From assembly GCA_902556355.1 (NCBI GenBank), contig CACDVW010000001.1, positions 5,164-69,163 on the forward strand: a stretch of DNA of 64,000 nt, read 5' to 3'. Under the pieces are notes generated by a model. That model made no database searches. It was not told where the DNA came from and was given only the letters and a program-made list of their open reading frames with translations. How positions within the stretch are numbered: position 1 is the stretch's first letter; the number at the start of each line of letters is the position of its first letter. This stretch comes from an uncultured SAR86 cluster bacterium (GTDB lineage: Bacteria; Pseudomonadota; Gammaproteobacteria; Magnimaribacterales; D2472). Of this stretch, positions 828 through 60,613 are shown one piece after another. The translations under genes were made by a program, and so were the position numbers.

Positions 828-1913
828 TCAGAATTCTTTTTTTAAAACTAATTTTATTAGTTTGTTGATATCAATTTCACTAATTATATTAATAAGATCT
901 TTTTCTGATGAAACATCATTTCCAAATAAATTTTTGTTAATTTGATTGATCTCATCGAATGTAAAATTTGATAAAAGATATAACTTGCAATATCCACTAA
1001 ACCATTTTGAGAATTCAGTCTGTTTAGTTTTATTTACCACATTTTTGTATGAGGATTTTTTAAAAAACACATTATTTTCTTTGACTGAAAGTAAAGATGA
1101 GGTTTCTACCTCAGGAATTTGGTTGTTATTATGTATTTCGATTACATTTTCAAAAACCTCATAGTTGGCGTATTTTTGTATTTGTTTTTCTAAAGTTGCA
1201 GATTCTGTTTTGGCCTCTCCAATTAAAAATTCATCTTTATCAATAACTTCAGTATTATTATTTTCTTCTTGCGAAGGAAACATTCTTATCATTGATAGCT
1301 CAATTATATTAAATCCTGATGGAAGAATTGTTCTAAGGCAATTCTCATTTTGTATTTGGCTCTGCTTTATAGCCATAAAATCAGGACTTCCCGATTTATA
1401 ATCTAATGGAACTTGAGTTTCTGTAATATATCCATTTTTTGAAAAATAAAAAGAAGATATCATTTCAAGGTAGGGCTCCATCCCATAACCCTTTTTAGAT
1501 TTATCAATTTTCAAAACTAAAATATTTTCATTCTCTGATCTATTAAGGTTTTTTTTAATTATTTTTCTAAAATGATTTTCATTCTCGATTTCAACTGGAA
1601 CAAAAATTTTATTTCCTTTAAATAAATATTCTCTTTTTTTAGACAATAATATGGGTGAATATTTTGGTTTATATCCATCATATATGCCTGTGATAAATCT
1701 ATATTCCAATGCAGATGAAACAATTTTAAGAAGTCCTCTTGTAGAAAAAGGATAAATAGAATTTTCTAAATATGCGCTACCAGATAAACTGCTAACCAAA
1801 AAAGCTGTTCTGGGATCAAGTATTAACCCTTGACCTATAGGTGTGTCTGTAATTTTTACATTTAATAACTTTTGTAAAGTATATAAAACACTTTTACTTT
1901 CAAGATTAGACAT
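828..1913 (-). CDS. Hypothetical protein; candidate restriction endonuclease (possible PD...ExK motif)
   Basis: 361-aa ORF with an ATG start that overlaps the upstream methyltransferase stop by 8 nt (ATGTCTAA). It contains SGSPDFMAIK ... FLIGEAKTES, which could be a PD-(D/E)xK motif with long spacing. The context is two MTases. Confidence 0.6.
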   Translation of the reverse strand: MSNLESKSVLYTLQKLLNVKITDTPIGQGLILDPRTAFLVSSLSGSAYLENSIYPFSTRGLLKIVSSALEYRFITGIYDGYKPKYSPILLSKKREYLFKGNKIFVPVEIENENHFRKIIKKNLNRSENENILVLKIDKSKKGYGMEPYLEMISSFYFSKNGYITETQVPLDYKSGSPDFMAIKQSQIQNENCLRTILPSGFNIIELSMIRMFPSQEENNNTEVIDKDEFLIGEAKTESATLEKQIQKYANYEVFENVIEIHNNNQIPEVETSSLLSVKENNVFFKKSSYKNVVNKTKQTEFSKWFSGYCKLYLLSNFTFDEINQINKNLFGNDVSSEKDLINIISEIDINKLIKLVLKKEF

Positions 1914-3036
1914 TTCTCATAATCAAAACTCTATCGAGTTTCTCTTTTTTCTTTTGAATTGAATTAGTTCCACCATATTTCACAATTGTTGTTTTTGATG
2001 CTGGTATTTGATCATTAATAATATCAACCTTTTTAAAACCAATTTTTTCATAAAGATCAGCAATGTCTTCAGCTGTGTTTAGTGACTTGCTTGGAGAAAG
2101 ATGAACATCTCCTAAAATAAATACAAGTAAACCGTCTTTTTTTAATACTCGTTTCATTTCCCTTCCAACCAAATACATTTGATCAAGGTAGGTAGATCTT
2201 TGTTGGATTAAATTAGTAGTTAATTCCTCTTGTTGGTGATCATTTTGATCACATAACCACAACCTAAGCCTATTGGAGTGAACATAGTCTAGGGTGTGGT
2301 AATAAGGTGGGGATGAAATAACATTGTTTACTGAATTAGTTTTTAGAGATAGCTTTCTTGAGTCTTCTTGAAGAATTTTTCCTTGAACATCTAAACTAAC
2401 TTCATCCTTATACATCCTTGATGCTTTGCTAATCATTCTTGGGATTACTTCTCTATATTCTTTTTTAGGTTTTGGATTTGGAATATATGGAATTATATAT
2501 CCGGTTCTAATAGATAGATGTTGAGGTCTGTGACCATGTAAAATCCCCAAAAGACATCCGTATAAAAAATTTCTTTCATTTTTAATTAAAATCTCTTTAA
2601 GCTGTAGTATTTCTACAAGTGTTTTTTTATGGAAATATTCTTTTACCCACATAGGTACAGATTCTAAGTCTGGTATTGGTTCTTTTTTCAAATTGATTTG
2701 ATTTAAAAAATTAATTTCTTCATCAACCCCCCTTCTATCAAATTTTGATTTTGAAATTAACACAGCGTAGGGATTTAAATCATTTCCTATAAATTTACGA
2801 TTTAATTGATCTAACTCTAAGGGAATTGTTCCAATACCACAAAAAGGATCCAAAACTACCTGACCTTCAGTTGTTAATTCTTTTATTAAAAAATGAGCAA
2901 ATGCTGGTTTAATTCTTCCAACATACGATGAAATAGAATGCATCCAAATTCCCCAATTTTGTTTTGAAAATGGCTGCTCTTTCCATGGACACTTTTTAAG
3001 TCGCCTTATCCTTTTTTTTAAATCACTATCATTCAT
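1906..3036 (-). CDS. SAM-dependent DNA methyltransferase with an SPPY motif (N4-cytosine or N6-adenine type)
   Basis: AdoMet motif VLDPFCGIGT (aa 61-70) and catalytic motif SSPPYY (aa 241-246) are separated by about 170 aa (order I, insert, IV). There is an 8-nt ATGAATGA overlap with the upstream MTase. Confidence 0.85.
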   Translation of the reverse strand: MNDSDLKKRIRRLKKCPWKEQPFSKQNWGIWMHSISSYVGRIKPAFAHFLIKELTTEGQVVLDPFCGIGTIPLELDQLNRKFIGNDLNPYAVLISKSKFDRRGVDEEINFLNQINLKKEPIPDLESVPMWVKEYFHKKTLVEILQLKEILIKNERNFLYGCLLGILHGHRPQHLSIRTGYIIPYIPNPKPKKEYREVIPRMISKASRMYKDEVSLDVQGKILQEDSRKLSLKTNSVNNVISSPPYYHTLDYVHSNRLRLWLCDQNDHQQEELTTNLIQQRSTYLDQMYLVGREMKRVLKKDGLLVFILGDVHLSPSKSLNTAEDIADLYEKIGFKKVDIINDQIPASKTTIVKYGGTNSIQKKKEKLDRVLIMRNV

Positions 3037-4084
3037 CTTTTTTGAAAATCAAACAATAATGGTGAACAATGTTGGAGGTCCATCCAAAAGGATATCCAAA
3101 TGGCGCTAATCCAACTTTATCTTGACACCATATTTTTTCATCTTTTAATGAATACTTTGTTTCTAAGTTTTTAGCTAAATCCCATGCGAGTGGATAATGC
3201 TTACCTGATTTTTTTAAATTCTTTACAATAACAACCAAATATCCACCTGGTTTAATAAAACTAAATATATCTAAATATATATTTGAAAGAATTGATAAAA
3301 ATTCCTTGTAATCACTTATATTTCCAATGTCTTCTTCAAATGAAGAATAATTAATATCTAGATTTTTTGAACTTCTTATTTTAGAAAATTTACCTGTACT
3401 TCTGTTAAGAATGTCCCAATAAGGAGGTGAACTTATACAAAAATCAATTTTATCTACTTTATGTTTTTTTAATAATTTTTTGACATTTTTAGAATCTCCA
3501 TGAATCACTTTCGATTTGGTTCTAAGTTTAATTATTTGACAATACTTTTTATTTATCTCAATACCAATACCCGTTCTATTAGTTCTGTCACATGCAACTA
3601 AAGTAGACCCAATTCCAGAAAAGGGATCAAAAACTATCTCATTTTCTTTTGTAAAAAATTTAATAAAATCTTCCATCATAGATGGTGAATATGTTGCAGG
3701 ATGTTCTTCAGCATTTAACCCAGCCTTTGTTGTAATTTCTTTTTCTTCTTTTAAGTCTTTACTGAGAGCGTCAAACACAAACCAGCTTTTAGTAAATTTG
3801 GTCCAGCTTTTTCCTTCTAAGTGATTTAATTTATTTCTTAATGAGTAAGATCCTCTTTCTGGATCTAATATAATGGAATCTGCTTTTTCAATTTCACCTT
3901 TGGTATGAAAAAGAGATACATTCTTCCAGTCATCTTGATATTCTTTTGGAATAGTTTTAAAAATCTTTTTCCTTCTTATTGATCTTAATATATCCCTGGC
4001 TTGTATATGCAACTCCTCAGATGCAACTGGTACTATTTTTCTTTTATCTGAATAATAAAAATATGGTCTTTTAAGTGATTTCAC
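3029..4084 (-). CDS. SAM-dependent DNA methyltransferase with an SPPY motif (N6_N4_Mtase-like)
   Basis: Motifs HPATYSPSMMEDFIKFF...VFDPFSGIGST (aa 128-161), IGIEINKKY, then ISSPPYWD (aa 217-224), only about 60 aa after motif I. The start is GTG. Confidence 0.85.
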   Translation of the reverse strand: MKSLKRPYFYYSDKRKIVPVASEELHIQARDILRSIRRKKIFKTIPKEYQDDWKNVSLFHTKGEIEKADSIILDPERGSYSLRNKLNHLEGKSWTKFTKSWFVFDALSKDLKEEKEITTKAGLNAEEHPATYSPSMMEDFIKFFTKENEIVFDPFSGIGSTLVACDRTNRTGIGIEINKKYCQIIKLRTKSKVIHGDSKNVKKLLKKHKVDKIDFCISSPPYWDILNRSTGKFSKIRSSKNLDINYSSFEEDIGNISDYKEFLSILSNIYLDIFSFIKPGGYLVVIVKNLKKSGKHYPLAWDLAKNLETKYSLKDEKIWCQDKVGLAPFGYPFGWTSNIVHHYCLIFKKDE

Positions 4085-4127: not shown

Positions 4128-4574
4128 TCATGCGTTTTTCCAATAACTTAATGTTTTTTGATTAATTTGTGTTTGATCACAAATATCGGTAATTGATGTA
4201 TAAAATTTATCTGCAGACTCGTCATCAATTAGTAGTCTCAAGCATTCAATGATTCTTGTTATCCTGAGTTGATTATGGTTATATCCTCTTTTCCAATACT
4301 TATGTCTTTTTAAGAAAGATAAAAACCAATCAGAAGATTTAATGATATTTTGTCTTACCAGATTATCATTTTTTAATATCTGGACTAATTCATCTGTATC
4401 CAAATAGTATCCATGAAATGAGGACTGGCTTTTTTTGTTTAATGGAAAAAGTATTTGAATAAAGTCATGATTAATTTCTATTTCGTTGTCTGAGTAATTC
4501 CATATGTCCTGAATCATTCTATTTTTAAAGTCTGAATCTTTACCCAATAAAAAATTATGGAAATTCATCTCCAT
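4128..4574 (-). CDS. OGFr_N-like protein (homologue of the opioid growth factor receptor conserved region)
   Basis: NHDFIQILFPL and YNHNQLRITRIIECLRLL match the two signature blocks of the OGFr N-terminal domain (human HNHTYIQWLFPL / QHNYLRITRILKSLGELG). The track start at 4577 is TTG; the ATG at 4574 is preferred. Confidence 0.75.
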   Translation of the reverse strand: MEMNFHNFLLGKDSDFKNRMIQDIWNYSDNEIEINHDFIQILFPLNKKSQSSFHGYYLDTDELVQILKNDNLVRQNIIKSSDWFLSFLKRHKYWKRGYNHNQLRITRIIECLRLLIDDESADKFYTSITDICDQTQINQKTLSYWKNA

Positions 4575-4628
4575 CAAAAAAGAGTCTCTGATTTATTTGT
4601 TTGATTTAAGAATATGATTTTAAAAAAT

Positions 4629-5021
4629 TTACTTATTCTTTCTTGAGAAGTCATTAATATCTCCATAAAATGATTCAAAAATCAAAGCTCCGTTGGTGAT
4701 TTTTATAAACTTCTTAACGTGTTCAGATGTTGGTACCCGATAACCATACGCGTATGATTTCATGGTTGATCTTTTTTCATCAAAAATTTCAGAAGACGCT
4801 CTAATACCAATATGTAAAATTAAATTTTGAAATGTATAAATATTGTTATTTTTAACTAAGTCAATTTTTTTTCTCTTATAAGAATTGATAATTTTTTTAT
4901 TTTTATTTAAAAATAGATCTAATGGATCATCGTAGGACTCTTCATTATTTTTAAATAAAATAGTTTTTGATTTTGCGTATTTCTCTATGTTTTTATAGTA
5001 ATTTAATTGATACTCATCCAT
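4629..5021 (-). CDS. Hypothetical protein (130 aa)
   Basis: The ATG start overlaps the upstream protease stop by 8 nt (ATGGATGA), which suggests translational coupling. No motif recognised. Confidence 0.6.
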   Translation of the reverse strand: MDEYQLNYYKNIEKYAKSKTILFKNNEESYDDPLDLFLNKNKKIINSYKRKKIDLVKNNNIYTFQNLILHIGIRASSEIFDEKRSTMKSYAYGYRVPTSEHVKKFIKITNGALIFESFYGDINDFSRKNK

Positions 5022-9008: not shown

Positions 9009-9037
9009 ATCCTAAACAATGTGTTTTATTTTGACAA
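9009..9037 (-). repeat. Copy A of a perfect 29-bp repeat (plus strand ATCCTAAACAATGTGTTTTATTTTGACAA); promoter-like on the minus strand
   Basis: Identical to 12211..12239. On the minus strand it reads TTGTCA-N17-TAGGAT. It contains the palindrome AAACA-ATG-TGTTT. Confidence 0.85.
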
Positions 9038-9040
9038 ACT

Positions 9041-9736
9041 CTAAATATAGTTAGTGTCCTGTATGTCAGATTGATAAATATCATAGCTACTCATGCACAT
9101 TCTTTCAGAATGTTTAATAGCATGTGACAGTCCTTCGATAGTAAAGCGCATATCTTTTAGAGGTGATGAATTATCAAATTTAATTTCAAAAGATTTAGCA
9201 TCTCTCATGGATAGAATGTATTTTAGTTTAAAGACGTAGTCGATATTAGAACCTTCGCCAATGATATTGCCTACCTTCAAAACAATATCTTTCGGTTTGC
9301 CCCTATCAACAGTCATAGTTGCTTTAATTTCATCATCCTCTGAATAGTTAGTGTTTCCAACTGGTGCTGTAATTGTTGGCTCAGAGGTAACACAAAAAGG
9401 TCTAGCCATTTCTAGATAAAAATTAGTATTAGTATCATTACCTGTTTTATGGAGGATAAGATTTTCATTGGAGTAAGAATCTATACCCCAGCCATCAATA
9501 GTTCTTGTCCAGTCAGCTGAGAGAAATGAAGATGAGACTGTAAGGAGGAGGATAAACTTATGATGCTTGTACATAGGGTTCCCGGAGAAAGGACCGAGAT
9601 GTACCATCTTGTCGTCTAAGATAATCTCATCTTCATATTCAAACAAATCTTTCTTGGGCTTTAACCATCTCTTAACACCAAGACCAACTGTGAAAATTAT
9701 TAAACCAAGTAAACCAAACCCAAAAACTTCTTCCAT
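9041..9736 (-). CDS. Membrane-anchored hypothetical protein (231 aa); predicted target of the island ECF sigma factor
   Basis: N-terminal TM segment (FGFGLLGLIIFTVGLGV) and an AGGAG Shine-Dalgarno 6 nt before the ATG. It is preceded by the TGTAAC-N16-CGTTAAG motif. Confidence 0.65.
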   Translation of the reverse strand: MEEVFGFGLLGLIIFTVGLGVKRWLKPKKDLFEYEDEIILDDKMVHLGPFSGNPMYKHHKFILLLTVSSSFLSADWTRTIDGWGIDSYSNENLILHKTGNDTNTNFYLEMARPFCVTSEPTITAPVGNTNYSEDDEIKATMTVDRGKPKDIVLKVGNIIGEGSNIDYVFKLKYILSMRDAKSFEIKFDNSSPLKDMRFTIEGLSHAIKHSERMCMSSYDIYQSDIQDTNYI

Positions 9737-9773
9737 ATATAACTCCTAAATAAAAAAATTGTTTCGTTATTTT

Positions 9774-9807
9774 CTTAACGTGTCAGAAATGGATTTGTTA
9801 CAAATTA
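9774..9807 (-). promoter_or_regulatory. ECF-type promoter motif TAATTTGTAACA-N13-ACGTTAAG (copy 2)
   Basis: Minus strand: ATTAATTTGTAACAAATCCATTTCTGACACGTTAAG. The AAC (-35) and CGT (-10) elements are spaced as in TGTAAC-N16-CGT ECF consensus promoters. Both conserved blocks are identical to those at 11071..11104. Confidence 0.6.
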
Positions 9808-9809
9808 AT

Positions 9810-10469
9810 TTAACAATGACAAAAGATATGACGTTTTACTTCACTGGCTGCGAAGGAAACATCGACAGTTTCAATAATAGATAAATCAACAAAGTAATCT
9901 CTATCTGCTCTTGGAGCATTGATATCATTGTTTACAAAGAAATCTTTATTAGCTTCATAGATTGCGTACATAACTTGATACTTATCTACTCCCAGATCGT
10001 TAGCTATCTGTGATGCAGTGCTCCATAGAGTTTCCATCTCAGAGCCAGATACAAATATTGGCTCGGGCTCTTCAATGACTTCTCTAATCATTGGTTCGGT
10101 CTCTTCATATGCTATCTGTACCGAAGAGACTGGTTCTACTATCTCAGAAGAGGACTTCACAATCGTAAAAGCTATAACTCCAAGACTTGCTGCAATTGCA
10201 AAACCAATTAAAGGTTTGAAATTAATTGTTGAAACATTCGAAAGCTTCTCAAGTTGCTCACTGATAAAAGCTTCTGCCTTAGCATTGAGCTCATCTCTTC
10301 TTTCCCCGCCAAAGAAGCCCTCAAGCATGGACTCTGAGACAAGCAAGCTTTCATAAAATTCTTTGGCTTCTTTTGAGGCATCAATAAGTGCTTTTAGCTC
10401 AGGAGAGTTTTCGAGCGTAGCTCCATCATCCATTAGTTCAATTATTTGTATTTGCTTTTCTTCGTTCAT
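9810..10469 (-). CDS. Anti-sigma factor-like single-pass membrane protein with a FimV/LysM-like C-terminal domain
   Basis: Its ATG overlaps the sigma-factor TGA (ATGA). It has a central TM segment (LIGFAIAASLGVIAFTIV). The C-terminal TLWSTASQIANDLGVDKYQVMYAIYEANKDFFVNNDIN resembles the FimV N-terminal motif. Confidence 0.65.
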   Translation of the reverse strand: MNEEKQIQIIELMDDGATLENSPELKALIDASKEAKEFYESLLVSESMLEGFFGGERRDELNAKAEAFISEQLEKLSNVSTINFKPLIGFAIAASLGVIAFTIVKSSSEIVEPVSSVQIAYEETEPMIREVIEEPEPIFVSGSEMETLWSTASQIANDLGVDKYQVMYAIYEANKDFFVNNDINAPRADRDYFVDLSIIETVDVSFAASEVKRHIFCHC

Positions 10470-11044
10470 AATTTTCTGTCCATACATTTAGCAAGTTTTA
10501 TTCTTGCTCTATTAGCTTTCACCCTCAAATTTGCCATACTGTTATCACTCACAACTTCTTGAATCTCTTCATAGCTATGACCAGCACCCAGCATTGATAA
10601 AATAATTTGATCTGTTTCATCAAAAGACTCTAAGCATGTGAGCATTTGCTGAAACTCAAAATTCTGTTGGTGAAATCCATCATTGGTTACTGGTATATCA
10701 TTACCTTCAATTGAGACCATTCTTTTTTGTTTGCGTAAATTATCTACATGGTTATTCTTGAGAATTTTTTTGGCGTAAGCCATGGGTTTTGCATGCTCTA
10801 AGAATTTATCTTTGTTGTTGATTAGTTTTATTATGGTGTTATGAACCAAGTCTGATGAATCTGCCTTATTCTTATAAGTTAAAAACATGGCATAAGGCAT
10901 TAGCTTTTTGCTCATATCTTCAAGTAATTCTTTAAATGTCATCTCTATTTCATTCTTACACGATTTATTATCTTCGTGTCTAAGCGCAAGAAGTTTTTCC
11001 TGCTTATTTACAGTCCTAGATTCTATGTTCACAAGTGCTTCCAT
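10466..11044 (-). CDS. ECF-family (sigma-70 group 4) RNA polymerase sigma factor
   Basis: Region 2-like DLVHNTIIKLINNKDKF...AKKILKNNHVDNLRKQKR and a region 4 HTH, DQIILSMLGAGHSYEEIQEVV...NLRVKANRARIKLAKCM. Confidence 0.8.
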   Translation of the reverse strand: MEALVNIESRTVNKQEKLLALRHEDNKSCKNEIEMTFKELLEDMSKKLMPYAMFLTYKNKADSSDLVHNTIIKLINNKDKFLEHAKPMAYAKKILKNNHVDNLRKQKRMVSIEGNDIPVTNDGFHQQNFEFQQMLTCLESFDETDQIILSMLGAGHSYEEIQEVVSDNSMANLRVKANRARIKLAKCMDRKL

Positions 11045-11070
11045 GTTTGAGTAAATATATCTATCTACTC

Positions 11071-11104
11071 CTTAACGTACCAGGATCAAAAATGTTACAA
11101 ATTA
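11071..11104 (-). promoter_or_regulatory. ECF-type promoter motif TAATTTGTAACA-N13-ACGTTAAG (copy 1, upstream of the sigma gene)
   Basis: Minus strand: AATAATTTGTAACATTTTTGATCCTGGTACGTTAAG. It ends 26 nt before the sigma ATG, and its -35 element overlaps the stop of the HTH gene. Confidence 0.6.
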
Positions 11105-11355
11105 TTTTTAATTAATTTTTTAATTGATTTTGAGACAACCATTTTTTTATAGCCAACCCTAAAAGATTCAAGCATATTATATTTAATGTATTGCCTAACC
11201 TTGTGAGGGGTGCAGCCTAAAATAATAGCTGTATCTTTAATAGTATATGAGGGTTGCATATCGTCGTAGATGGTCTTTTTATAAATACCAAGATGCTTTT
11301 CAATGTTTTCCAATTTCTCAAGAATTAAATCTAACTTATCTTCTTTTTCTTTCAT
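11095..11355 (-). CDS. Excisionase-family (HTH_17/MerR-like) DNA-binding protein
   Basis: YTIKDTAIILGCTPHKVRQYIKYNMLESFRVGYKKMVVSKSIKKLI fits the Xis-type HTH pattern (EaA.lLgvs..tv...i..g.l....G....i....l..). Confidence 0.7.
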   Translation of the reverse strand: MKEKEDKLDLILEKLENIEKHLGIYKKTIYDDMQPSYTIKDTAIILGCTPHKVRQYIKYNMLESFRVGYKKMVVSKSIKKLIKNNL

Positions 11356-12210: not shown

Positions 12211-12239
12211 ATCCTAAACAATGTGTTTTATTTTGACAA
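12211..12239 (-). repeat. Copy B of the perfect 29-bp repeat; promoter-like on the minus strand
   Basis: Identical to 9009..9037. It lies between the stop of 12254..12553 and the start of 11893..12204. Confidence 0.85.
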
Positions 12240-12553: not shown

Positions 12554-12589
12554 TAACTACATGCTAAATAATGAATTATATTTAATCAA

Positions 12590-12787
12590 TTAATCATTAA
12601 TAAAATAAGTCCCCCATTCTTCATATACGTATTTCCAATGCTCTTGTTCACAAATGGGACAGTGATAATGCCAACTCATTGGAAATGATTTGGTTTTTGG
12701 GTAATTAAGACTATTCATAAAACCAGTAACATTTACTATGCAAGGTATATATTCGCAGTTGTGAAGTTCACAAATTTGTTTATTCAT
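12590..12787 (-). CDS. Small Cys-rich (zinc-ribbon-like) protein (65 aa)
   Basis: CELHNCEYIPC ... HYHCPICEQEH. An AGGAG Shine-Dalgarno sits 6 nt before the ATG. Confidence 0.55.
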   Translation of the reverse strand: MNKQICELHNCEYIPCIVNVTGFMNSLNYPKTKSFPMSWHYHCPICEQEHWKYVYEEWGTYFIND

Positions 12788-59524: not shown

Positions 59525-60613
59525 ATGTATTTTGGTTTATCAGAAGATCAAGAATTTTTTAAAGACAACGTAAGTAAATTTTTACAAGACCATGCTCCTT
59601 TAGATGTTATAAAAAAAATCATAGAAGATGATGAACACGACTTAAAAAATAATATTAAAAATGGATTAGTTAATCTTGGTATTAACTCTTTGTTGATTCC
59701 AGAAGAGTATGGAGGTCTTGGACTTGACTTACTTTTTGCCACAGCAGTATCTCAAAGCCTAGGTGAGAATATAGCACCATTTTCTTTCCTAAGTTCTTAC
59801 GTGATGGCTCCAATAGCTTTAATAAATGGTGGGAACACAGAACAAAAAGAGAAATATCTCAAGGGAATTTTAGAAAATAATTATAAGTTCGGAGTTGGTT
59901 TTTCAGAGTTTATTTCGGCTAGAAATGATTTTGGATTTATTTTTAAAGATAATAAAATCAATGGGAAATCAATCTTTGTTTTGGATGCTGATGATGTATC
60001 CCATCTCTTATTGGCAGATGAAAATGGAGTAATTGGTGTTGTAGACACAAGTGACAAAAATATTGAAATTATAAAACTTACAACAGTAGATAAAACTAGA
60101 AGCTACTCGGAGGTTATTTTTAAAAATGCTTCAATTGATGTTCTTGAAAATTCAATTACTGATATTGAGCCATTAAAAAAATCTATCGATGCTGGAAGAA
60201 TTATATTAGCTGCTGATTCGTTGGGAGCATCTGAAGCGCTAATTAGAAAAGCTGTTGCATATTCAAAGGAAAGAAAACAGTTTGGTCGTGCTATAGGTTC
60301 TTTTCAAGCAGTAAAACATATGTGTGCAGAAATGGCATCTGATTTAGAGCCTTGTTACTCATTGGTATGGCATGCTGCTCATTGTTTTGATAATATTCCT
60401 GATGAATCAAGACTGATGGCTTGTCATGCAAAATCACATGTTTCGGAAGTCTCTAAAGTTATAAGCAAAAAAGCTACAGAAGTTCATGGTGGCATGGGTT
60501 TTACTGATTTGATGGGTATTCATTATTGGTTCAAAAGGATTGGAGTAAATAGACAAAACCTAGGTTCTCCAGAAACTATTAGAGAAGAAGCTGCAAAAAT
60601 ACAAAATTTATAA
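59525..60613 (+). CDS. Acyl-CoA dehydrogenase family protein (second of the second pair)
   Basis: The ATG at 59525 (MYFGLSEDQEFF) is 1 nt after the preceding stop; the track start at 59471 overlaps. ACAD pattern FQAVKHMCAEM, HGGMGFTD. Confidence 0.8.
   Translation: MYFGLSEDQEFFKDNVSKFLQDHAPLDVIKKIIEDDEHDLKNNIKNGLVNLGINSLLIPEEYGGLGLDLLFATAVSQSLGENIAPFSFLSSYVMAPIALINGGNTEQKEKYLKGILENNYKFGVGFSEFISARNDFGFIFKDNKINGKSIFVLDADDVSHLLLADENGVIGVVDTSDKNIEIIKLTTVDKTRSYSEVIFKNASIDVLENSITDIEPLKKSIDAGRIILAADSLGASEALIRKAVAYSKERKQFGRAIGSFQAVKHMCAEMASDLEPCYSLVWHAAHCFDNIPDESRLMACHAKSHVSEVSKVISKKATEVHGGMGFTDLMGIHYWFKRIGVNRQNLGSPETIREEAAKIQNL

Follow-up and report, generated by a model that had tools for sequence, protein, structure and literature searches.

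Results

The DNA analysed here (hereafter the window) is a 64-kb stretch, 64,000 nucleotides (nt) in full, of contig CACDVW010000001.1 (assembly GCA_902556355.1) from an uncultured SAR86 cluster bacterium. Three consecutive genes on its minus strand encode an extracytoplasmic function (ECF) sigma factor, a candidate membrane anti-sigma factor and a 231-amino acid (aa) protein designated p231, and they are accompanied by two copies of a promoter-like motif, designated P_sigma and P_231. An earlier note, made from the letters of this DNA, had read the locus as an autoregulated sigma/anti-sigma pair with one dedicated target on a mobile island. The features of the locus are as follows.

11071..11106 (-): P_sigma, predicted ECF-type promoter (-35 TGTAAC at 11094-11099, 16-nt spacer, -10 CGTT at 11074-11077, then AAG)
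10466..11044 (-): ECF (group 4) sigma-70 factor, 192 aa (TIGR02937, Pfam Sigma70_r2, PDB 5uxx_A)
9810..10469 (-): anti-sigma candidate, 219 aa (ATGA overlap with the sigma stop codon; FimV_core TIGR03505)
9774..9809 (-): P_231, predicted internal ECF-type promoter (-35 TGTAAC at 9797-9802, -10 CGTT at 9777-9780)
9041..9736 (-): putative target gene p231, 231 aa (open reading frame call, comparative synteny)
11095..11355 (-): 86-aa helix-turn-helix (HTH) open reading frame (Pfam HTH_17, E 0.004; TIGR01764, E 0.02)
9009..9037 (-): 29-nt conserved element TTGTCAAAATAAAACACATTGTTTAGGAT, directly after the p231 stop codon; a second perfect copy lies at 12211-12239 (-)

The gene calls of the earlier note proved correct; besides the three genes, they comprise a 93-aa open reading frame (ORF) with three transmembrane (TM) segments (3-TM) and then a 457-aa AlbA_2 protein, both downstream of p231 on the minus strand. 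The proposed translational coupling was also borne out, the ATG of the second ORF (start at 10469) overlapping the sigma stop codon as ATGA, and the coupled partner is a single-pass membrane protein with the layout of an anti-sigma factor. The gap between the anti-sigma candidate and p231 is 73 nt long and holds the second motif, which is non-coding because it starts 3 nt past the stop codon of the anti-sigma candidate. Downstream of P_231, a ∼35-nt leader contains AGGAG, a strong ribosome-binding site. At the other end of the locus, the TAA stop codon of the 86-aa HTH ORF falls inside the -35 hexamer of P_sigma.

Both strings quoted for the motifs in the earlier note are present on the minus strand, and the two copies agree in full over the blocks TAATTTGTAACA (12/12) and ACGTTAAG (8/8). 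The stretch between the blocks had been given as 13 differing nt; its length is 14 nt and, although it does differ for the most part, the copies agree at 5 of these 14, in part through a common T(C/T)CTG. In the window, the pattern TGTAAC-N(15-18)-CGTTAAG has two matches, at 9774-9802 (-) and 11071-11099 (-), compared with 0.00 expected from 100 shuffles, and the looser TGTAAC-N16-CGT likewise has two (0.05 expected from shuffles). When up to two mismatches to TTGTAACA-N15-CGTTA were allowed, one further window site appeared, at 59560, which is at chance level. The motif pair is highly non-random. Further, the sigma factor gene is preceded by a promoter-like AAC at -35 and CGT at -10 with 16-nt spacing, which at the sequence level is a feature of ECF autoregulation. 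As judged by its letters, the window motif matches the published ECF promoter types of SigX (TGTAAC/CGWC; PMC12153292), SigAb (GTCAAC/CGTT; PMC12153292) and ECF16 ((T/C)GTAAC-N17-CGAA; PMC8315932).

Conservation of the gene trio and its motifs

The locus was compared with two sets of relatives: a close set of 14 loci (L001-L014; sigma identity 47-97%; ∼240 kb of close relatives) and a distant set of 80 metagenomic loci (∼460 kb), retrieved with p231 relatives ∼25% identical to the p231 of the window. In the close set, the sigma factor gene is followed by the anti-sigma candidate in 14/14 loci, and p231 comes next in 12 of them; of the other two, L003 ends inside the anti-sigma gene and L014 carries a 62-aa remnant of p231. 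Both motif copies are present in all of L001-L013 that reach both sites (L003 is cut before the second), over a range of sigma identity of ∼57-97%, and the P_231 motif is kept in every close locus that reaches its site (L001, L002 and L004-L014). In L014, in which the sigma factor is 47% identical, the strict pattern was matched upstream of the p231 remnant only, and the -10 of P_sigma reads AGTT.

An alignment of P_sigma from 13 unique orthologous sequences revealed an invariant TTTGTAACA-N15-CGTT with a semi-conserved spacer and diverged flanks. This core is constant although the upstream neighbour varies, being either the 86-aa ORF or an intergenic region after DUF2237. The bases 3' of CGTT differ among loci (AAG, ATA, TAG and others), and therefore the 8-nt block of the earlier note is specific to the clade of the window. 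The ECF promoter architecture that it had assigned to the motifs stood: both have ECF geometry, with AAC at -35 and CGT at -10, and both are footprinted phylogenetically in related loci.

Consistent with the close set, sigma, anti-sigma and p231 genes occur in the same order and on the same strand in 45 of the 48 distant loci in which all three were detected; in the exceptions, L015-L017, the sigma pair is divergent from p231, and a few distant loci have an extra gene between the anti-sigma gene and p231. The strict TGT[ACG]AC-N16-CGTT lies upstream of p231 in 67/80 distant loci. Taken together, the close and distant loci therefore indicate that P_231 and the gene trio are deeply conserved.

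Extra copies of the motif were found in the distant set. In 24 of 34 distant-clade loci, one lies on the opposite strand upstream of the sigma factor gene; two loci (L054 and L088) have one after p231; and L015-L017 have a further copy ∼3 kb beyond the anti-sigma gene. The earlier note had called the regulon self-contained. This is supported in the window, where only two strict copies occur in 64 kb, but distant relatives hold extra copies, and self-containment is therefore not general across the family. The opposite-strand copy (TGT[AC]AC-N16-CGTT) lies ∼60-100 nt upstream of the sigma factor gene, back to back with a P_sigma of degenerate -10 (L021, L025 and others), and in L025 (∼4650-4690) its direction is antisense to a 468-aa lipoprotein-like gene, whose 3' end it faces. 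Judging from its placement, an antisense RNA or a small RNA may be transcribed from it in an ECF-dependent manner.

Sigma factor

The assignment of the first gene to the ECF-type sigma factors is confirmed by TIGR02937 (45.1 bits; cut-off, 42.9), by Pfam Sigma70_r2 (28.4; cut-off, 24; E 1.5e-6) and by profile alignments that span residues 36-188, that is, both sigma2 and sigma4. The best PDB match, 5uxx_A (E 6e-8; residues 45-186), likewise spans both regions; the Pfam region-4 model on its own gave no match at E 0.1. All NCBIfam equivalog and subfamily cut-offs are far above the scores of this protein (best, the GFO_1088/PG0214 family, 56.9 versus 130), and by these models it therefore belongs to no named ECF. 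Its N-terminal extension of ∼34 aa is variable among orthologues, yet in frame. Marine metagenomes yielded 1331 sigma homologues, and the matches in genomes were to SAR86; an exact-sequence look-up of the window sigma factor returned no record.

Divergence between the window and L006/L007 is mosaic. AcnB is 97-99% identical, p231 ∼90% and the LysM-like domain of the anti-sigma candidate 95-98%, and in the same comparison region 2 of the sigma factor is just 51-54% and region 4 76-77% identical. This pattern suggests a putative recombination breakpoint or allele replacement inside the sigma factor gene, at the border of the flexible region.

Anti-sigma candidate

The second ORF encodes a cytoplasmic N-domain (residues 1-84), one TM helix (∼85-105), a variable linker and a periplasmic domain (135-219). 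The N-domain has a DDG-plus-helix pattern reminiscent of helix 1 of the anti-sigma domain, with no Zn motif and no His/Cys motif. In the ortholog alignment, the periplasmic domain is nearly invariant and ends in HIFCHC. It was matched by FimV_core (TIGR03505): the window copy scored 34.5 bits, under the cut-off of 43.45, over profile positions 1-40 of 74, and orthologues in L014 (53.3 bits) and L025 (45.2 bits) exceeded the cut-off over positions 2-69. By these profile scores, the domain is a predicted FimV/HubP core (LysM-like) domain for the family as a whole and in part for the window copy. This region of FimV is its LysM-like peptidoglycan-binding part, and the LysM-like periplasmic domain of the anti-sigma candidate probably contacts peptidoglycan.

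The p231 protein

p231 begins with a TM segment (TM1; residues 4-21) and a cytoplasmic loop of ∼38 aa with an invariant GPFSG. A second hydrophobic segment, which is signal-peptide-like (ending in FLSA, with the boundary before D), leads into the periplasmic part, a beta-rich domain of ∼155 aa in which Cys115 and Cys214 are invariant. In shorter p231 relatives (170-185 aa), an ordinary signal peptide starts exactly at the second hydrophobic segment of p231, and p231 is therefore read as TM1, loop, signal-peptide-like segment and periplasmic domain.

The family is tiny (66 representatives in 1.84 billion proteins). No sequence match to p231 was found in Pfam, NCBIfam, PADLOC or PDB, and a Pfam scan of 25 family members gave single chance-level matches only (LolA at 0.038). 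An AlphaFold2 model built on a shallow alignment (sequences 74-94% identical) had a predicted local distance difference test score (pLDDT) of 34.6; it became usable after 20 distant representatives (21-47% identical) were added, with a mean pLDDT of 75.5 and averages of 80-93 for 10-residue blocks of the domain. Foldseek of this model returned nothing in PDB (best E 0.07; TM-score ≤0.22), and in the viral library BFVD it returned weak matches to uncharacterised proteins of phages RB16/KP15 (E 3e-5; TM-score 0.40-0.47). The phages in question are T4-like and the matched proteins membrane proteins; a tblastn search of 50,697 phage genomes with p231 gave no match.

In L014, a complete SAR86 genome (CP097973.1), p231 is cut down to 62 aa (11122-11310), comprising TM1 and the GPFSG loop. 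An intact TGTAAC-N16-CGTT promoter and a ribosome-binding site lie ahead of it, and a gene for a thioredoxin-like protein with a WCPDC motif is next. The 62-aa ORF is either a pseudogene remnant or an N-terminal module that is functional by itself.

Genomic setting

From position 1 to ∼12.9 kb, the window has a guanine-plus-cytosine (GC) content of 27-30%, compared with 32-37% elsewhere, and this stretch contains restriction-modification methylases, AlbA_2 and orphan genes. The cassettes upstream of the trio are a 65-aa ORF preceded by a riboswitch, followed by ORFs of 99, 103, 128, 43 and 86 aa. Among the other loci, L006 and L007 have short cassettes between the core DUF2237-AcnB genes and the trio, and in L004, L005 and L009-L011 the trio directly follows core AcnB...DUF2237 without upstream cassettes (in L005, DUF2237 alone is visible, AcnB being off the locus). 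Distant SAR86 clades have the trio too, in different genomic contexts. On the other side, tblastx of each locus against the window showed that similarity ends ≤∼45 nt past the p231 stop codon, and beyond it the gene content varies between loci, with BREX, Dnd, GmrSD, UmuDC and an OGFr_N-like gene among the genes present. The 29-mer at 9009-9037 marks this end of similarity between loci. No terminator was predicted after p231 (fold z-score, -0.3).

No tRNA was found in the window and no integrase among its scanned ORFs; viral contigs held no relatives of the sigma factor or of the neighbouring 128-aa gene; and PADLOC gave no match at E≤1e-3 for sigma, anti-sigma or p231. The designation of the system as island-borne and mobile thus fell: the trio is the conserved part, it adjoins core genes in several loci and recurs in distant clades, and the window has neither integrase nor tRNA. 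The features of an integrative mobile genomic island are absent, the trio being retained while its neighbours vary. From this synteny, the module is best seen as a set of genes that SAR86 has conserved, positioned either where the flexible region has its fixed edge or a short way into that region. The suggested read-through into the 3-TM/AlbA_2 pair was not supported either, because the downstream genes differ in every locus and the conserved 29-nt element intervenes before the downstream gene.

The 86-aa HTH protein has weak excisionase/MerR-like matches in Pfam and NCBIfam profiles. Among the window and L001-L014, its gene is found in the window and L001-L003 only, and it is an accessory cassette outside the conserved module.

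On the gene strand, the 29-mer TTGTCAAAATAAAACACATTGTTTAGGAT has a weak third window copy at 12561-12589 and is also present in L001, L002, L003, L006, L007 and L012; it was not found in the distant-clade loci L015-L094. Most copies end 5-8 nt ahead of a start codon, the gene that starts there differing from copy to copy, and copies often lie right after the p231 stop codon. Between loci in which the neighbouring proteins are 10-40% different, the element has 0-2 mismatches. Judging from its composition, it would be either a sigma-70-like promoter (TTGTCA-N17-TAGGAT) giving leaderless transcripts or a leader with an AGGA ribosome-binding site beside a small AAACA/TGTTT hairpin; within this flexible region of SAR86, it may belong to the cassette junctions. 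The two perfect copies in the window are direct repeats flanking 3.2 kb and were considered as att sites; this was rejected, as the same 29-mer precedes many different genes elsewhere.

Other genes and elements of the low-GC stretch were also recorded. A SAM-I/IV riboswitch (RF01725; 12789-12884 (-); 77.4 bits; E 3e-11) has the core DUF2237 gene on one side and the cassettes preceding the sigma factor gene on the other, and is directly upstream of the 65-aa cysteine-rich ORF (12590-12787), which has no family match; the riboswitch was not found in seven related loci. At 828-4084 (-), two genes for N6/N4 DNA methyltransferases lie side by side (PADLOC type II methyltransferase; E down to 6e-34), and their cognate nuclease could be a 361-aa orphan encoded downstream of them on the minus strand. 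The OGFr_N-like gene that the window has at 4128-4577 (149 aa) recurs in L009-L011, where it comes immediately after p231.

Proposed mechanism and alternatives

Overall, the locus is probably a canonical, chromosomally conserved SAR86 ECF signalling module, in which a membrane anti-sigma factor would control the sigma factor, P_sigma would be autoregulating and P_231 would drive p231. Given the identity of the sigma factor, the coupling of the anti-sigma candidate and the footprinted motifs of ECF geometry, autoregulation plus one dedicated adjacent target, as originally predicted, is therefore the best reading of the sequence.

Sequence and comparison show what the genes are, that the first two are coupled and that the motif pair exists and is conserved; for the working of the module, we infer recognition of the promoters by the sigma factor, anti-sigma activity, peptidoglycan sensing and proteolytic release. 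At rest, the cytoplasmic N-domain of the anti-sigma candidate would tether the sigma factor to the inner membrane. A signal from the envelope, with peptidoglycan plausibly involved through the LysM-like domain, would then inactivate the anti-sigma factor, most likely by regulated proteolysis, and the freed sigma factor would direct RNA polymerase to TGTAAC-N16-CGTT promoters. Activity of P_sigma would lead to positive autoregulation of both regulators, and the internal P_231, with its strong ribosome-binding site, would allow p231 to be expressed above them. The presence of a strong ribosome-binding site at p231 and of no clear one at the sigma factor gene fits high p231 output and low regulator output. 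p231 would be the sole conserved output or possibly a feedback partner.

Several observations weigh against this model. P_sigma is canonical in the clade of the window, but its -10 is degenerate in distant clades (GGTC/AGTC), and autoregulation may therefore not be universal. The leader of the sigma factor gene has no clear ribosome-binding site, and in L004 and L012 the sigma ATG is merely 6 nt past CGTTAAG. The anti-sigma candidate has no zf-HC2/RskA-type Pfam match at E≤0.1 and no PDB match; since no anti-sigma family or solved structure matches the second ORF, its role rests on position and topology, and its activity as an anti-sigma factor is put forward here on that basis.

The principal alternative is that p231 is a third regulatory component (like RseB, AabB or YhdK), acting with the periplasmic domain of the anti-sigma factor as co-sensor or feedback inhibitor of a regulon located elsewhere in the genome. 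We regard this as unlikely, although with a sizeable share of the probability. Operons of sigma factor, anti-sigma factor and periplasmic partner are known (RpoE-RseA-RseB and SigAb-AabA-AabB; PMC12153292), and across loci the identity of the p231 periplasmic domain tracks that of the LysM-like domain of the anti-sigma candidate, not that of sigma region 2; this covariation, however, could be mere physical linkage of neighbours. Also compatible with a regulatory partner, L014 retains just the N-terminal 62 aa of p231 (TM1 and GPFSG) behind an intact promoter. Further motif copies do occur elsewhere in relatives, but neither the 64-kb window nor the ∼240 kb of close relatives holds another. Moreover, a strong promoter and ribosome-binding site of its own precede p231, as is typical for an output gene, and the protein has no similarity to RseB/MucB or LolA-like folds.

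A switch on a mobile island, driving island cargo by reading through into 3-TM/AlbA_2 or other defence genes, is very improbable and, on the evidence of synteny, appears largely refuted. The trio does lie within a low-GC, gene-variable stretch (27-30% versus 32-37%) whose neighbours are restriction-modification methylases and AlbA_2 and, in other loci, BREX, Dnd and GmrSD genes, and the lack of a predicted terminator after p231 makes read-through physically possible. Nevertheless, it is the trio that is conserved and the cargo that is different in every locus, with similarity ending ≤45 nt from the p231 stop codon; the trio abuts core genes without upstream cassettes in L004, L005 and L009-L011; window integrase and tRNA, viral-contig relatives and PADLOC matches for the trio are all absent; and the downstream genes are preceded by the separately conserved 29-nt promoter- or leader-like element. 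We assign the lowest probability, close to none, to the repeated motif being a site of another regulator or a neutral duplication and not a sigma-dependent promoter. The 86-aa HTH protein would be a candidate for such a regulator, its gene ending inside the first motif, but that gene is absent from L004-L014, where both motifs nevertheless persist. The conserved positions form two blocks 16 nt apart with AAC and CGT, the ECF signature, and no palindrome, and an invariant core amid diverged flanks argues for selection and against neutral duplication.

Discussion

SAR86 bacteria are streamlined, belong to the most abundant uncultured bacterioplankton and have very few regulators. A full-text literature search returned one paper, which was unrelated, and no description of an ECF system for this lineage. 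The circuit is of textbook ECF design, an uncharacterised and lineage-specific SAR86 module whose modestly interesting parts are the anti-sigma candidate with a FimV-type LysM domain and the orphan putative target protein, and our understanding of ECF systems is unchanged by it. Its use may lie elsewhere: the promoter consensus TTTGTAACA-N15-CGTT is a handle for envelope-stress signalling in metatranscriptomes, and the three-gene circuit is a compact orthogonal sigma/promoter pair for synthetic biology.

A more far-reaching interpretation, which we consider a long shot, is that of a minimal SAR86 ECF circuit in which the anti-sigma factor reads the state of peptidoglycan via its FimV-type LysM domain and the single dedicated output is an orphan envelope protein that has an internal signal-peptide-like segment and whose fold has no solved relative. 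Such a circuit could be a sensor of cell-wall damage or phage attack that switches on a new envelope protection, because the module lies at the fixed edge of a region rich in defence genes and the p231 model is weakly like proteins of T4-like phages.

The earlier note had suggested that a system of this kind was not described. However, autoregulation and co-encoded targets are the usual state for ECFs (PMC7826278), and small direct ECF regulons are common (PMC12153292). Like SigX and SigW of B. subtilis and SigAb-AabA-AabB of A. baumannii, the SAR86 module has a two-domain sigma factor with a coupled single-pass membrane partner downstream, a predicted promoter of its own in which a TGTAAC-like -35 and a CGT(T) -10 are 16-17 nt apart, and what would be a very small local regulon; the SigAb operon likewise has three genes, of which the third is periplasmic (PMC12153292). 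Unlike in these systems, the third gene in SAR86 has its own predicted internal promoter and belongs to an orphan target family, the anti-sigma candidate carries a FimV-type LysM-like domain and the sigma factor scores far below every NCBIfam equivalog cut-off. With RpoE-RseA-RseB of E. coli, the module shares the character of a gammaproteobacterial envelope ECF with a (here candidate) membrane anti-sigma factor, a periplasmic third protein and an operon that would be autoregulated. RpoE differs in its promoter type, GGAACTT/TCAAA (PMC12153292), and its large regulon; p231 has no sequence or fold similarity to RseB, and the anti-sigma candidate has no RseA family match. Finally, the module resembles the polar landmark proteins FimV/HubP, in that the periplasmic domain of the anti-sigma candidate matches the TIGR03505 core, with orthologues above the curated cut-off. 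In FimV/HubP, however, this domain is N-terminal in a large landmark protein, whereas in SAR86 it is C-terminal in a protein of 200-220 aa that is paired with an ECF sigma factor.

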